Source of the DNA: Candidatus Levybacteria bacterium RIFCSPHIGHO2_01_FULL_37_33
GTDB taxonomy: Bacteria > Patescibacteriota > Microgenomatia > Levybacterales > UBA12049
DNA: 40,061 nucleotides
Direction: 5' to 3'
Assembly (NCBI GenBank): GCA_001782085.1
Contig: MFNM01000045.1
Location: forward strand, 1 to 40,061
Below the pieces are notes generated by a model. That model was not told the origin of the DNA. It saw only the letters and a program-made list of their open reading frames with translations, and did not search any database. Made by a program: the position numbers and the translations under genes. Positions 9,592 to 13,773 of this stretch are shown one piece after another (the stretch's first letter is position 1; every line of letters starts with the position of its first letter).

Positions 9592-10597
9592 GACGTAATA
9601 AAAACCAGCGGAGTTTATCTCCTATTTTATACAGCTCATATAAAATCGGGTTAATTACAAGATCGTAGCTGCCGATGAGCTCAACTAATTCTGCGCCGTA
9701 ACCTTGTTTGAATTTGTGAAAGCCATACCACGGGTCTTTTGGATCAGGATTCGGTCCAAGCGCTCCCCACATATCAAATTTCTTAAGTCCTAATTTTTTA
9801 CCAAATCTTATTGCCTCCCACATAATAAGATTACTCGCCATAGTTTCCCGATGTTGCTCGCTTGATGCGCCATAAGGATAATAGAGTGTATTTTTGAATG
9901 TAAACAGTATCCACGCAACAAGAACCTCAGTTTTATATTTTCCAAGAAGCAAGTGCGCCGTCAGCCGATTTGAATCATGAAGTAGGAATTTTGAATCATG
10001 GTTTTTATTCTTAATTCTTGATTCCTGATTCTTGATTCCTAATTCTTGCCACATTTTTTTATGATAAGCTTGCGTATGGGCGTAAAACCCCTGGCGTTTG
10101 GTAGTTTCATTTGTAAGTTTTAAATAAGTTTTAAATGCCTTGTCCGAATTGTCTTCTACAACTTTTACTCCATGTTTTTGGGCAACTTTTATGTTGTACC
10201 GAGTTTTTGGATGCATATTTTTCAGAAGTTCATCTTCGGATTTGGTCAAATCAAGCTGGAAAGTATATTTAGTAAAAAGAGGATGGAAAGAAGGCCGAAA
10301 GTCTAAATTTGAAATTTGAAATTTGAAATTTGAAATTTGTTGTATGTTTGGTTCAAGCTGAATGAATATACATTTATTCTCTTTACCGATTTTTTTAAGT
10401 TCTTCAATAAGTTTTTTGTCCGGCAAGTTTCCTTTTGGCAGATAACCGATTGTCCACGGAATGTGCGGAATCTTATGGATGGTCAATTGAAAATCTTTTT
10501 CCCTTACGACTTTTACTCCTGTTTTTTCGCGAAACTGTCCCCATTCAAAAGCTTGAAGAGGATGGTTAGCATATTTATTAAAATCTTTCGCGGTCAT
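9584..10597 (-). CDS. FemABX-family peptidoglycan peptidyltransferase
   Basis: HPLQAFEWG, KTRYNI, YPYGAS, FDMWG, GFHKFKQGYG. Confidence 0.9.
   Translation of the reverse strand: MTAKDFNKYANHPLQAFEWGQFREKTGVKVVREKDFQLTIHKIPHIPWTIGYLPKGNLPDKKLIEELKKIGKENKCIFIQLEPNIQQISNFKFQISNLDFRPSFHPLFTKYTFQLDLTKSEDELLKNMHPKTRYNIKVAQKHGVKVVEDNSDKAFKTYLKLTNETTKRQGFYAHTQAYHKKMWQELGIKNQESRIKNKNHDSKFLLHDSNRLTAHLLLGKYKTEVLVAWILFTFKNTLYYPYGASSEQHRETMASNLIMWEAIRFGKKLGLKKFDMWGALGPNPDPKDPWYGFHKFKQGYGAELVELIGSYDLVINPILYELYKIGDKLRWFLLRLK
9972..10045. repeat. Two oppositely oriented degenerate heptamer arrays inside the FemABX gene
   Basis: GAATCAT GAAGTAG GAATTTT GAATCAT, then TTAATTC TTGATTC CTGATTC TTGATTC CTAATTC; encodes ELGIKNQESRIKNKNHDSKFLLHDS. 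Confidence 0.75.
10305..10339. repeat. (AAATTTG)x5 perfect heptamer tandem inside the FemABX gene
   Basis: Five exact copies; encodes QISNFKFQISN. Confidence 0.9.
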
Positions 10598-12480
10598 AGA
10601 AATTCCGAAGGATCATTATTAATAATGTTTAAATTATTAGATAAGACTTTTTCCGGCAACTCCAACACAAAGCGCGAAACGATATTTGAAGTTCTTTGTC
10701 CGAAGAAAAGTCTTTTTCGCGAGTATGTTAAAAATAATCTTTCTTTAGCACGAGTCATGCCGACATAGCAAAGCCTTCTTTCTTCCTCAAGCTCATTTTT
10801 GTCCATAAGACTTCTTGAATGAGGAAAAAGGCCTTCTTCCATACCTATCATAAAAACTATTGGAAATTCCAAACCTTTTGCGCCGTGAAGAGTCATTAAA
10901 TTTACCGCGTCTTTCTTTTCCCCGTTTTTTGGATGGTCAGGCATATATTCCTGTTCAACCAATGCGACATTTTCCAGAAACTCAATAAGATCAGGGAATT
11001 CTATAGCAACCGACCTTAACTCCTTAATATTTTCAAGTCTTGCCCGGTCCTCCTCGTCCCTTTCATCATACAGAGAAAGATAAGCTGTTTTACTCAGAAC
11101 TTTATCCAGAATTTCAAGAGTCGGTATTGTTTCAACCTTTTTTTCTTTGAAATCTTGCGAAAACTCAATAAACTTACTTAACCTTCCCTTGCCCAATTTT
11201 TCTATTCTTTTGTAGGAAACAGTGTCTTTTGGGTTTGCAATAAGTCTTAAGTATGCCAAAACATCTTTTATCTCACGCCTTTCGTAAAATCTTGTTCCGC
11301 CAATTAAAACATATGGAACTCCCTGATGAAGGAAGCCCTCTTCGATTGCGCGAGACTGGGCATTAGTTCTATAAAGAACTGCAAAGTCGGAATAAGAGAG
11401 ACGGGGATCTTGAGACTTAAGCTCAAGAATCTTATTTATTATATATTCTCCCTCATCATGTTCGTTTCGTGATTCATATAAGGCAACATCTTCTCCTTTG
11501 GGATTTTCTGTCCAAAGGTCAAGTACTGGATGGGAGGTGTTTTTGGAAATAACAGAAGATGCGGCATCAAGTATTTTTTGAGTGGACCTGTAATTTTGGG
11601 AAAGAGAAAAAGTTTCAACATTTTTTCCACCAGAGGCGGATCGTCCTTTGGACGAAAAATCCTCTTTAAATTTTGAGAGATTTTGAAAGTCAGCGCCCCG
11701 CCAGGAATAAATGCTTTGGGAAAAATCTCCGACCACGCAGACATTTGGAGATTTATCAAAATCTGAGCCCGAAAGCATTTTTGTTAGAATATATTGCGCA
11801 TGGTTTGTATCCTGATATTCATCAACTAAAATATATTTGAATTTATCTTGGTATTTTTTAAGAACCTGCGGATTTTTATCGAAAAGCTCTATAGTCTTTA
11901 AAATTAGATCATCAAAGTCCAAAGCATCATTTTCCGAAAGAAGCCTTTGATAGATAGGGTATATTCGTGCTACTGTTTCCTGAAAATATCCTTTTGCATA
12001 ATTTAAATATTCAGATGCTGTTATTAATTGATTTTTTGCTTCGGATATCGTTGTTGAAATCGAAGAAGGCTTAAAGTCTTTAGTTGAGATTTCAAGAATT
12101 TTCATTGTCTCTTTTATTGCATCAATCTGATCTTGATCATCATAAATTACGAAATTTTTAGGAATGCCGATATACTGACCCTCAATTCTTAAAATCTTTG
12201 CGCAGAGAGAATGAAATGTTCCTATGGTTACCTGATGCGCATGCAAATGTTTTCCCAAAAGTCGATAAATTCGCTCACGCATTTCGTTGGCAGCTTTATT
12301 AGTAAAAGTAGTTAAAAGAATATTGTCAGGCGAAACCCCTCTATCTATTAAATAGGCTGTTTTATAAACTAAAACCCTTGTCTTTCCAGACCCTGCGCCG
12401 GCTAATATTATGCATGGACCTTCAATATATATTACTGCCTCTTTCTGTTTTTGATTGAGCAAGGATAAATCAAGTGCCAT
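10594..12480 (-). CDS. pcrA: ATP-dependent DNA helicase PcrA/UvrD
   Basis: AGAGSGKT, DEYQD, QSIYSWRGA, NYRST, EERRLCYVGMTRA. Confidence 0.95.
   Translation of the reverse strand: MALDLSLLNQKQKEAVIYIEGPCIILAGAGSGKTRVLVYKTAYLIDRGVSPDNILLTTFTNKAANEMRERIYRLLGKHLHAHQVTIGTFHSLCAKILRIEGQYIGIPKNFVIYDDQDQIDAIKETMKILEISTKDFKPSSISTTISEAKNQLITASEYLNYAKGYFQETVARIYPIYQRLLSENDALDFDDLILKTIELFDKNPQVLKKYQDKFKYILVDEYQDTNHAQYILTKMLSGSDFDKSPNVCVVGDFSQSIYSWRGADFQNLSKFKEDFSSKGRSASGGKNVETFSLSQNYRSTQKILDAASSVISKNTSHPVLDLWTENPKGEDVALYESRNEHDEGEYIINKILELKSQDPRLSYSDFAVLYRTNAQSRAIEEGFLHQGVPYVLIGGTRFYERREIKDVLAYLRLIANPKDTVSYKRIEKLGKGRLSKFIEFSQDFKEKKVETIPTLEILDKVLSKTAYLSLYDERDEEDRARLENIKELRSVAIEFPDLIEFLENVALVEQEYMPDHPKNGEKKDAVNLMTLHGAKGLEFPIVFMIGMEEGLFPHSRSLMDKNELEEERRLCYVGMTRAKERLFLTYSRKRLFFGQRTSNIVSRFVLELPEKVLSNNLNIINNDPSEFL
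11626..11655. repeat. 30-nt double-hairpin element in-frame in pcrA
   Basis: TCCACCAGAGGCGGA + TCGTCCTTTGGACGA; encodes SSKGRSASGG just before NYRST. Confidence 0.75.
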
Positions 12481-12915
12481 AATTTATTCCTTCTATAAAT
12501 TTTTTATACTTTCTCTCAAGGTATATAGTGGCATTTTTATACATGTAAGTAAATAATTTTACGGCTGCTTTGTGTCCAATTCGTACTTTATAATAAGGTG
12601 TTTTTTGATGAGCCATGCTAATATTAATTCTCCCTTGATAAAAGTTACCAGTCTCTTTTCTTAGTATTCGATATAAAAAACGAGCCATATTAAAACTCGC
12701 AGCGCCATTTCAGGAGACCATAGTTTAAAAAAGTTAGAATTAATAGAGTGCTTTTTTACTTTCTTTTGAAAGGGAAGGTGTCTTACTTTAGATTGTATTG
12801 CGGAATATGATCTTTTAAGAGTTTTCCCTATTTGATTATAGGTTAATTTACCGATCTTATTACTTAGAAGTTCAATTTCTTCTTGTTTCCATGGATGAGT
12901 GTATTGGTTAGGCAT
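12470..12915 (-). pseudogene. HTH-LAGLIDADG homing endonuclease relic with internal deletion/frameshift
   Basis: HTH-like start (W..EEIELL) and NFFKLWSPEMA, the usual lead-in to the first LAGLIDADG helix; jumps near 12703 to another frame AASFNMARFL...YMY...LERKYKKF; catalytic helices absent. Confidence 0.7.
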
Positions 12916-13054
12916 TTATTAAATATATAACCTTATAAGTTAATACTCTTGTCTTGTCCGATCCGGCACCTGCTAAAATAATCATAGGGCCATCGGTTTT
13001 GATAACTGCTTTTTGTTGATCGAAGTTTAAGTCCTTGAGAAAGTCTTTGTCCAT
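12908..13054 (-). pseudogene. pcrA: Orphan duplicate 5' head of pcrA (48 aa)
   Basis: MDKDFLKDLNFDQQKAVIKTDGPMIILAGAGSDKTRVLTYKVIYLINA*; Walker A G>D; stop overlaps the endonuclease ATG (ATGCCTAA). Confidence 0.9.
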
Positions 13055-13101
13055 ACTCTATAATAGAGAAACTCAAGTTATTGTACCATAAGACCCTTCG
13101 T

Positions 13102-13773
13102 ATGAAAAAACTTTTTATTATAGCTAACTGGAAGTCAAATAAAACCATCGAGGAGGCAGAACAGTGGTTTCATGATTTTGCCGAGAAACTAAAATCCGAT
13201 AGCTCCAATATCGAGAATAAGGAAATAATTGTTTGTCCCTCCTTTATTCTTTTTGAACATGCCCGTTATTGTTCGAATAATTTAAAACTTCCTATAAGAT
13301 TCGGCGCACAAAATATCTCGCCTTTTGATAAGGGAGCTTATACAGGAGAAGTAAACGGAGAGCAAATAAAAGAATTTGCGCAATATGTGATTATCGGACA
13401 TTCGGAAAGAAGGAAAAACTTCTCAGAAACAAATGAAATGCTCAAGCAGAAAGTTTTAATGGCAAAAAAATATAATTTAATGCCAATTTTTTGTATTCAA
13501 AATCAAGATTCACCAGTTCCTCAAGAGATTGATGTTATAGCCTATGAGCCTCCGACTGCCATTGGAACGGGTAATCCCGATACACCGGAAAATGCGCAAA
13601 GGGTGGCGAAGATTGTTAAAGAAAGAACAGGCGTTGCGAACGTTCTTTATGGGGGAAGCGTTACATCTTCTAATGTAAAAACGTTTACTAATATGCCGGA
13701 TATAGACGGACTTCTTGTCGGTGGAGCGAGTCTTGATTCCTTAGAGTTTCTTGCCATAATTAAGAATGCATAA
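13102..13773 (+). CDS. tpiA: Triosephosphate isomerase
   Basis: ANWK, GHSERR, AYEP, YGGSV, VGGASL; ATG 13102 preferred to TTG 13081. Confidence 0.95.
   Translation: MKKLFIIANWKSNKTIEEAEQWFHDFAEKLKSDSSNIENKEIIVCPSFILFEHARYCSNNLKLPIRFGAQNISPFDKGAYTGEVNGEQIKEFAQYVIIGHSERRKNFSETNEMLKQKVLMAKKYNLMPIFCIQNQDSPVPQEIDVIAYEPPTAIGTGNPDTPENAQRVAKIVKERTGVANVLYGGSVTSSNVKTFTNMPDIDGLLVGGASLDSLEFLAIIKNA

Follow-up and report, generated by a model that had tools for sequence, protein, structure and literature searches.

A probable scar of end-replacement homing at the 5' end of a PcrA-type helicase gene in a Levybacteria genome

The stretch of DNA considered here, hereafter the window, comprises 40,061 nucleotides (nt) of the metagenome-assembled genome (850 kb in 52 contigs) of Candidatus Levybacteria bacterium RIFCSPHIGHO2_01_FULL_37_33, an ultra-small groundwater bacterium with a Levybacteria-type genome of the candidate phyla radiation (CPR). 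All coordinates refer to the window, and open reading frames (ORFs) are those of a program-made list. On the minus strand, a promoter-like site is followed by an orphan copy of the 5' end, or head, of the helicase gene pcrA, by two ORFs in different frames that are the remains of a nuclease gene, and by a complete helicase gene. The original prediction, made from the letters of the sequence, had described an orphan head, a broken nuclease and a full pcrA lying head to tail with small overlaps, and all of these were found. The comparisons reported below suggest that the region is very probably the scar of an end-replacement homing event, now dead, in which a mobile nuclease gene would have brought along its own pcrA head and displaced the native one.

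The complete, working pcrA (10594-12480, 628 codons) matches Pfam UvrD-helicase (E-value 1.8e-88) and UvrD_C (E 9.9e-70). Its best NCBIfam model is PcrA TIGR01073, with a score of 726.7 bits that lies under the equivalog cut-off of 911.2, and pcrA is therefore used here as a label for a helicase of the UvrD/PcrA family. The ORF of the orphan head (12908-13054, 48 amino acids, aa) matches UvrD-helicase as well (E 1.6e-10, 41.6 bits against a cut-off of 23), and also NCBIfam PcrA over residues 1-43; its final two codons, up to 12908, derive from the inserted DNA, called the cassette below. The orphan stop falls within the first codons of the 5' ORF of the nuclease (12661-12915, 84 codons, out of register from 12702 to 12661), with an overlap of 8 nt, and the 3' ORF of the nuclease overlaps the pcrA start at 12480 by 11 nt. 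The region of the promoter-like site is colinear with the DNA upstream of pcrA in genomes of the same genus. Logan contigs from two other runs (816 and 769 bases) span all three junctions with 0 differences, so the structure of the locus is not an assembly artefact. No second copy of the nuclease was found in the same genome with ORF2 or ORF3 as query. The features are collected in Table 1.

Table 1. Features of the pcrA locus and the evidence on which each assignment is based
Feature	Position in window	Strand	Basis
Promoter-like site, candidate native pcrA promoter, 5' of the orphan head	13080..13108	minus	Consensus scan, TTTTCA-17-TACAAT with TG ahead of the -10; consensus match only
Orphan, native pcrA head, codons 1-47	12914..13054	minus	Pfam UvrD-helicase, same-genus identity, tree position
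Inserted cassette in its present state, 588 nt (nuclease relic and imported pcrA codons 1-52)	12326..12913	minus	Empty-allele contig, G002 alignment
Nuclease relic, 5' part, residues 1-71, helix-turn-helix domain up to 'WSPEMA'	12703..12915	minus	Alignment to intact 270-aa relatives
Deletion junction and frame change within the nuclease gene	12680..12702	minus	Alignment with intact relatives
Nuclease relic, 3' part, residues 199-270, 72-codon ORF	12470..12688	minus	phrog_4645, identity to intact C-termini
Imported cassette-type pcrA head, codons 1-52 of the working gene	12325..12480	minus	DNA identity, best matches, head tree
Native-type pcrA body, codon 53 to stop	10594..12324	minus	DNA identity to G002, body tree, Pfam UvrD-helicase and UvrD_C
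tpiA, divergent neighbour anchoring the native position of the orphan head	13105..13773	plus	ORF list

The two heads of the window have different affinities. The heads of the pcrA loci of 40 related genomes were compared, and trees were built of 47 heads and of the bodies of 39 full-length genes (near-duplicate loci L023, L036, L041, L052, L054, L055, L060 and L062 were left out of the trees and column counts, and L046 out of the column counts). At the DNA level, the orphan shares 91, 88 and 87% identity with its counterparts in G002, G001 and G003, three nuclease-less genomes of the host genus; its 12 best matches all come from nuclease-less genomes, and it falls within the genus clade with a support of 96/91. 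Its synonymous divergence (dS) from G002 is 0.29. A hidden Markov model (HMM) of 27 nuclease-less heads matches the orphan at E 1.4e-27, against a best control of E 0.67, which places the duplication beyond chance. Only the orphan carries P11F and, within Walker A, G33D, where the working copy and the three same-genus genomes keep the Gly; G33D had been assigned to the orphan by the original prediction.

Between working head and orphan, DNA identity is just 54%, and the 12 heads that match the working head best all belong to nuclease-bearing loci (74-63% DNA identity). The working head is placed in a starred clade of 7 cassette-linked heads, and forcing it into its own genus was rejected by the approximately unbiased (AU) test (p 0.016). 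The original prediction, in which the nuclease is accompanied by a pcrA head of its own, is borne out here. The proportion of synonymous differences (pS) between orphan and working head is 0.84, which is saturated and the same as between the working head and G002. Along the working gene, the head part is 53-66% identical in DNA to G002 versus 68-74% to G032, and the body, in 30-codon windows from column 61 on, is mostly 75-93% identical to G002. The body is the sister of G002 (95*) in the nuclease-less genus clade (100*) of the body tree, with dS 0.67 and a nonsynonymous divergence (dN) of 0.058. Because the affinities of head and body differ, the working pcrA is a chimera, foreign in its head (codons 1-52) and native in its body. 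Judged by these affinities, the orphan is the native head, displaced by a foreign one. As a separate observation, codons 55-59 of pcrA in G002 (L006) read 'ILLTT' ahead of the motif TFTNK, like the cassette-linked alleles, where G001 and G003 (L007 and L008) and most other nuclease-less alleles read 'ILMVT'; an earlier conversion tract, or loss of a cassette in the G002 lineage, could have left this trace.

The point of insertion can be read from alleles that lack the cassette. In G002, G001 and G003, the locus is colinear with that of the window from tpiA across the intergenic DNA as far as 12914/12913, the last base ahead of the nuclease ATG. In one contig of run X5, the sequence passes from 12914 to 12325 without the 588 nt between them, and the 20 letters that stand there instead code, on the minus strand, for I-L-G-V-D-P-T, the native codons 48-54 as in G002. 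With 13 differences in 125 bases, this contig is an uninterrupted allele of a related strain, and its breakpoints agree with the G002 alignment. Loose contig ends at 12918 in runs X3 and X9 continue as the native type, as read from 30 letters, and the groundwater and soil run sets that contain the cassette allele also include at least two different pcrA alleles without a cassette, from related strains. Since the empty allele carries native codons 48-54 where the window has 588 nt, these codons were replaced by the cassette, whose intact version would measure about 970 nt. Codons 52 and 60 bracket the right-hand crossover in the window, and the junctions are at native codons 47-54, not at Walker A.

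The nuclease gene is a relic. Neither of its ORFs has a Pfam match above the cut-off. The 5' part matches the transcriptional regulator phrog_323 (E 8.1e-8) and the 3' part the endonuclease phrog_4645 (E 4.5e-5, profile positions 244-300 of 308); the 5' ORF also touches phrog_4645, at positions 64-110, and the separate stretches matched by the two ORFs suggest an internal gap. With the 72-aa ORF as query, 3 of 61 related genomes gave a match, the window's genome among them, and the other two, G032 and G039, hold intact relatives of 270-271 aa. Both of these are flanked by a divergent tpiA and by pcrA, the start of which they overlap by 11 nt. The relic ORFs are 47-57% identical to the intact nucleases, and the 3' part is 48-53% identical to their C-termini. 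Residues 1-71 and 199-270 are retained, residues 72-198 (about 127 codons with both LAGLIDADG motifs) are deleted, and the frame shifts at the junction. The designation of the ORFs as a LAGLIDADG relic was thus right, by descent only, because both motifs are gone and the product cannot be an active nuclease. The string 'MARFLYRILRKETG' in ORF3 was considered as a decayed LAGLIDADG motif and dismissed, as alignment to the intact relatives assigns it to the C-terminal part.

The intact nucleases of G032 and G039 pass Pfam PF14528 LAGLIDADG_3 with 42.3 and 45.4 bits (cut-off 22.5; E 9e-11 and 1e-11), and the motifs LGFI.ADGN and RGYFDGD are invariant in all five intact relatives. A structural model of the G032 nuclease, with a mean pLDDT (predicted local distance difference test) of 74.8, consists of an N-terminal three-helix bundle followed by two alpha-beta-beta-alpha-beta-beta-alpha domains, the order of elements expected for the DNA-binding saddle of LAGLIDADG enzymes. 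Its top Foldseek matches in the PDB are I-Tsp061I, I-LtrWI, I-AniI, I-SceI, I-OnuI and a nuclease-bearing intein (E 2e-8 to 1e-6), and all of the top 50 PDB fold matches listed have the LAGLIDADG fold, being homing endonucleases, a maturase or endonuclease-bearing inteins. By sequence profile, I-Tsp061I is the only clear PDB match (E 4e-4). From motifs and predicted fold, the intact family is one of double-motif, single-chain LAGLIDADG enzymes with an N-terminal helix-turn-helix domain.

Some further signals lie within the same region of the window. A terminator-like hairpin (7 pairs and a T run; consensus match only) stands at 12700-12680 on the minus strand, exactly at the deletion junction of the nuclease; if it were functional, pcrA would need a promoter 3' of it. 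A match to the Rfam c-di-GMP-I-UAU riboswitch within the coding sequence of the pcrA head (12343-12427, minus strand; 26.7 bits, gathering score 65.9, E 0.0027) is most likely due to chance. An intron or intein was considered and rejected: no Rfam intron family was matched at E of 1 or less in 12200-13200 or around the intact L039 copy, and stops and frame changes divide the nuclease from both pcrA pieces.

The arrangement recurs in relatives. Scans with the intact proteins gave 6 loci in species-representative genomes and 23 in metagenome contigs (L063, matched through its helix-turn-helix alone at E 2e-5, is excluded from all counts). The pcrA head begins at the nuclease end or within about 15 nt of it in all 24 loci with downstream DNA, and two further loci from a class-wide search likewise adjoin pcrA. 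Intact homologues of the nuclease therefore stand next to pcrA in 26 of 26 loci with downstream DNA, which is what the original prediction had suggested looking for. Of 28 related loci scanned, 17 have a divergent tpiA upstream of nuclease and pcrA, and the 11-nt overlap of nuclease and pcrA is present in four of five loci inspected (the window, G032, G039 and L040 among them). The same prediction spoke of a coupled chain of overlapping genes. Both overlaps are real in the window, but that of orphan stop and nuclease ATG is not a feature of the family, because the distance from orphan stop to nuclease start (-59 to -7 nt) and the length of the orphan ORFs (12-58 aa) vary among relatives.

Displaced heads were sought in 23 loci, where the 300 nt preceding the nuclease gene were searched with the HMM of the 27 nuclease-less heads; reverse-complement and shuffled controls formed a set about six times larger (best E 0.67). 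Remnants with E<1e-3 were found in 9 of the 23. The long orphans of the window, L058, L049, L050, L051 and L053 stop at or just past 'YLI.'. Decay is not confined to the window: the nuclease gene of L040 has an internal in-frame deletion and that of L059/L060 is interrupted at residue 137. A deletion at about 1700-1760 of L043 fuses the nuclease gene, up to residue 248, to about codon 22 of pcrA with no recognisable in-frame pcrA start, which may be a broken allele or a population variant.

The trees point to mobility. The nuclease label requires at least 6 changes on the body tree (39 genes) versus 2 on the head tree (47 heads). The cassette heads of L038, L045 and the window form one starred clade and their bodies belong to three different starred clades, a discordance that argues for movement between lineages. 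The distribution is patchy, the pcrA-linked type being present in 5 of 401 genomes of the class (G000, G032, G039, G426 and G307). Just 5' of the intact nuclease genes, within 25 nt of the start, many loci have a conserved 22-nt leader that contains TGTTATAAT, 6 nt ahead of the start codon (L035, L036, L037, L039, L042, L043, L045-L048, L056, L058, L061 and L066). It resembles an extended -10 box and, on its letters, may be either a promoter giving a leaderless transcript or what remains of an older orphan tail ('AALL stop').

A scheme that accommodates these observations can be proposed. The mobile cassette consisted of a double-motif LAGLIDADG gene with a helix-turn-helix domain, plus about 52 pcrA codons that overlap the nuclease stop. 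Comparison of alleles shows that it entered the resident pcrA in the interval from native codon 47 to 54 and that the promoter and start of the resident gene, together with its codons 1-47, were displaced upstream to become the orphan. The cassette head was joined in frame to the resident body, so that the helicase stayed whole as a chimera; as the target is a protein-coding gene, the replacement end must preserve reading frame and start codon. The endonuclease is predicted to cut cassette-free pcrA near codons 40-58, around 'YKVIYLI..G..P.NIL' and some 5-25 codons 3' of Walker A, and repair templated by the carrier would then copy the cassette. The cassette head may resist cutting because it departs from the native one at codons 41-43 and is a codon shorter at codon 48, and the upstream remnant could serve as a homology arm, as in the model for the WHO elements of yeasts discussed below. 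Later, the nuclease gene changed frame and lost about 127 codons with both motifs, and the orphan gained P11F and the Walker A change, leaving an immobile copy.

With regard to the target, if the end of the orphan is the broken end, the cut was at or 3' of native codon 47 in the window, 48 in L058 and 57 in L037. Alleles were compared column by column, between 27 nuclease-less heads (bases conserved in at least 75%) and 16 cassette heads. Columns conserved in the former with another base in the latter are position 1 of codon 25 and position 2 of codons 41, 42 and 43, and 14 of the 16 cassette heads, against 3 of the 27 nuclease-less ones, have a gap of one codon at codon 48. On this basis we somewhat favour a target within native codons 40-58 or so.

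Several observations weigh against this account as a whole. Six of the 23 loci have short remnants only (HMM positions 1-11 or 1-14, E 0.06-0.46), and in 8 of 23 the HMM found no orphan remnant in the 300 nt upstream. The junctions do not all coincide, the orphan of L037 extending to about codon 57. Two of the three long orphans (L037 and L058) stand, on long branches, on the cassette-head side of a fork that the tree leaves unresolved (81/0), a placement that is outside the sampled nuclease-less heads in a sample without close nuclease-less relatives of their hosts. The discriminating columns are not independent, because all of them come from one clade of heads. No donor emerged among the loci compared, the nearest cassette head being just 74% identical in DNA. 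The relic is closest to one set of relatives in its 5' half and to another in its 3' half, so that a single insertion and a single deletion may be too simple a history. Support is comparative throughout, and cleavage and homing are deduced from it.

The original prediction had placed the target elsewhere, proposing that the endonuclease cuts the Walker A coding sequence and that the imported head escapes by synonymous recoding. Conserved sequence is a frequent target of homing endonucleases, and Walker A is the most conserved stretch of the head. The count on which the proposal was built is also correct: 9 of the 10 identical residues in GP.IILAGAGS use different codons, and 11 of 15 over 17 residues. 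This difference, however, is at the background level. Pairs of nuclease-less heads (n=351) use different codons at a mean fraction of 0.67 of their identical residues in this stretch, 7.4% of them at 0.9 or above, mixed pairs in 0.71 (n=364) and cassette pairs in 0.72; orphan and G002 differ in 1 of 10 codons. When divergence between the two heads was set against the background, the recoding therefore proved to be ordinary saturation, an outcome that the original prediction had itself named as counting against it, with the same pS for orphan and G002 when each is compared with the working head. This affects the recoding argument only, since the claim that the nuclease travels with its head is supported by evidence other than codon counts. 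Moreover, the orphan keeps native codons 29-47, which include Walker A and 12 codons past it and would be hard to reconcile with a Walker A cut if the orphan end is the broken end, and no Walker A column (codons 27-35) separates the 16 cassette from the 27 nuclease-less alleles. A target at Walker A is thus very unlikely, and so is the explanation that depends on it.

The different affinities of the relic's halves could reflect two successive cassettes, a 'group 2'-like one followed by a 'group 1'-like one, after which a deletion would have joined the 5' part of the earlier nuclease gene to the 3' part of the later one and eliminated the orphan head between them. This would refine end-replacement homing instead of displacing it. 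The 5' part (residues 1-71) is nearest to L059, L053 and L058 (72, 70 and 68% identity, against 55-65% to 'group 1'), the 3' part is nearest to L044, L045 and L046 (61, 59 and 58%, against 35-43% to 'group 2'), and the imported head matches 'group 1' loci. Stacking through repeated homing is among the features described for WHO elements (PMC7282813). The ranking is weak, as the stretches are short (71 and 72 residues), were compared by identity and include an N-terminal domain that is more conserved overall. A nuclease gene that was already mosaic before insertion would look identical, and no tandem two-cassette locus occurs among the loci examined, which leaves two cassettes as a possible but doubtful refinement. 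A further question is whether the relic has been retained for host use, as promoter, leader or ribosome-binding site for pcrA or as an 84-aa helix-turn-helix regulator. The two ends of the nuclease gene survive with the middle gone, and L040 likewise lost an internal part only; the promoter-like site stands only upstream of the orphan, the 11-nt overlap is widely kept, and the structure is identical in contigs of several runs. However, the coupling of orphan and nuclease varies in the family, a terminator-like hairpin lies inside the relic, and no close relative carries the relic for a comparison of selection; host use seems unlikely. Partial tandem duplications do occur in bacterial genomes, so the pcrA head might have been duplicated locally and its copies have diverged where they stood, a nuclease gene having arrived between them by chance, or two strains might have been mis-assembled, the window being taken from a metagenome-assembled genome of 52 contigs. 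A local duplication fits poorly with heads that are saturated while body and orphan are both close to G002, and with a working head that groups with cassette heads from other families. The same architecture is found in independent assemblies, and contigs of other runs cross every junction without a difference, so that duplication and mis-assembly alike are extremely improbable.

In the open-access full-text literature we found no description of end-replacement homing in a bacterial protein-coding gene, and no LAGLIDADG gene linked to pcrA or uvrD. Free-standing homing endonucleases are familiar from phages, where those of the T4 Seg and Mob type cut nuclease-less alleles of a neighbouring gene and co-convert flanking markers ('intronless homing'). 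They are intergenic, usually come without a duplicated gene end and belong to the GIY-YIG or HNH families; we know of none that is LAGLIDADG.

End-replacement homing has been documented for the mORFs of fungal mitochondria (PMC3630166) and the WHO elements of yeast nuclei (PMC7282813). The WHO elements of Torulaspora and Lachancea, as presented by Coughlan et al. (2020, eLife, PMC7282813), target FBA1, replace its 3' end and act in meiosis, and their allele-specific cleavage was shown experimentally. In that account a free-standing endonuclease gene, LAGLIDADG or intein-derived, homes into a housekeeping gene and brings along a replacement end, which confers resistance, with the displaced native end staying beside the element; the host gene becomes chimeric with discordant trees, and elements and fragments decay. 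The pcrA locus resembles it in these respects, resistance being established for WHO and predicted for the cassette head. It differs in being bacterial, not eukaryotic nuclear, in replacing a 5' end including the start codon, not a 3' end, and in being known from sequence alone. Its nuclease gene lies upstream and overlaps the new start, which is not so in the WHO elements as described there (PMC7282813).

For the mORFs, Beaudet et al. (2013, PMC3630166) report foreign gene C-termini in atp6, atp9, cox2 and nad3 of Glomus sp., and cite an mORF in atp6 of Allomyces macrogynus. As in the pcrA locus, the nuclease ORF, LAGLIDADG or GIY-YIG in the mORFs, stands between the inserted foreign end and the displaced native end. 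Even the identities are comparable: the native end is 91% identical in DNA to a close relative both in Glomus atp6 and in the orphan pcrA head, and the duplicated ends share 63.5% in Glomus atp6 versus 54% in the pcrA locus (PMC3630166). Unlike the mORFs of that report, which affect the 3' end of organelle genes and are often fused in frame with the host gene, the pcrA cassette affects the 5' end of a bacterial chromosomal gene, and its nuclease has an additional N-terminal helix-turn-helix domain that is not part of the mORFs as described. Introns of Tremella (PMC7315562, PMC8393795) offer a further parallel, in that the mobile element is accompanied by a duplicated N-terminal part of the host gene, with partial replacement by a foreign fragment as the result. 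These, however, are introns in mitochondrial genes according to the account in PMC7315562, whereas the pcrA element is free-standing and bounded by stop codons, with no intron RNA family detected. The pcrA cassette is, by these likenesses, a bacterial, 5'-end counterpart of the fungal mitochondrial mORFs and the yeast WHO elements.

The copy in the window is only a dead scar. In our judgement the case is evenly balanced for a broader proposal, namely that CPR bacteria may hold an active family in which a helix-turn-helix and LAGLIDADG gene with a spare pcrA 5' end overwrites the ATP-binding N-terminus, moves between families, stacks, and leaves orphan starts behind as leaders or homology arms, as one branch of a wider radiation that targets tRNA genes and perhaps topA. 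Through end-replacement homing, a selfish nuclease gene that carries a spare gene end can enter an essential gene and needs neither intron nor intein to do so. An active family would mean that this strategy exists in Bacteria and at the 5' end of a gene. Such activity would also explain why a core repair helicase has chimeric, phylogenetically discordant starts in CPR genomes, a trap for gene trees and annotation, and would provide single-chain LAGLIDADG enzymes of natural origin whose predicted target lies in a conserved helicase gene.

Other relatives of the nuclease occur away from pcrA. The added N-terminal helix-turn-helix domain distinguishes the pcrA-linked clade from core-only paralogues (about 26-37% identical), which lack it and adjoin tRNA genes for Cys, Leu or Asp in 19 of 24 loci (L069-L093), the loci without an adjoining tRNA gene being L076, L077, L078, L080 and L091. 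In L068 (G227:C55, 1294-2412, minus strand), a 372-aa nuclease relative with extra helix-turn-helix repeats at both ends follows a dprA-like gene and overlaps the start of topA (1313) by 20 nt, and it may be a similar cassette on topA, the gene for topoisomerase I.

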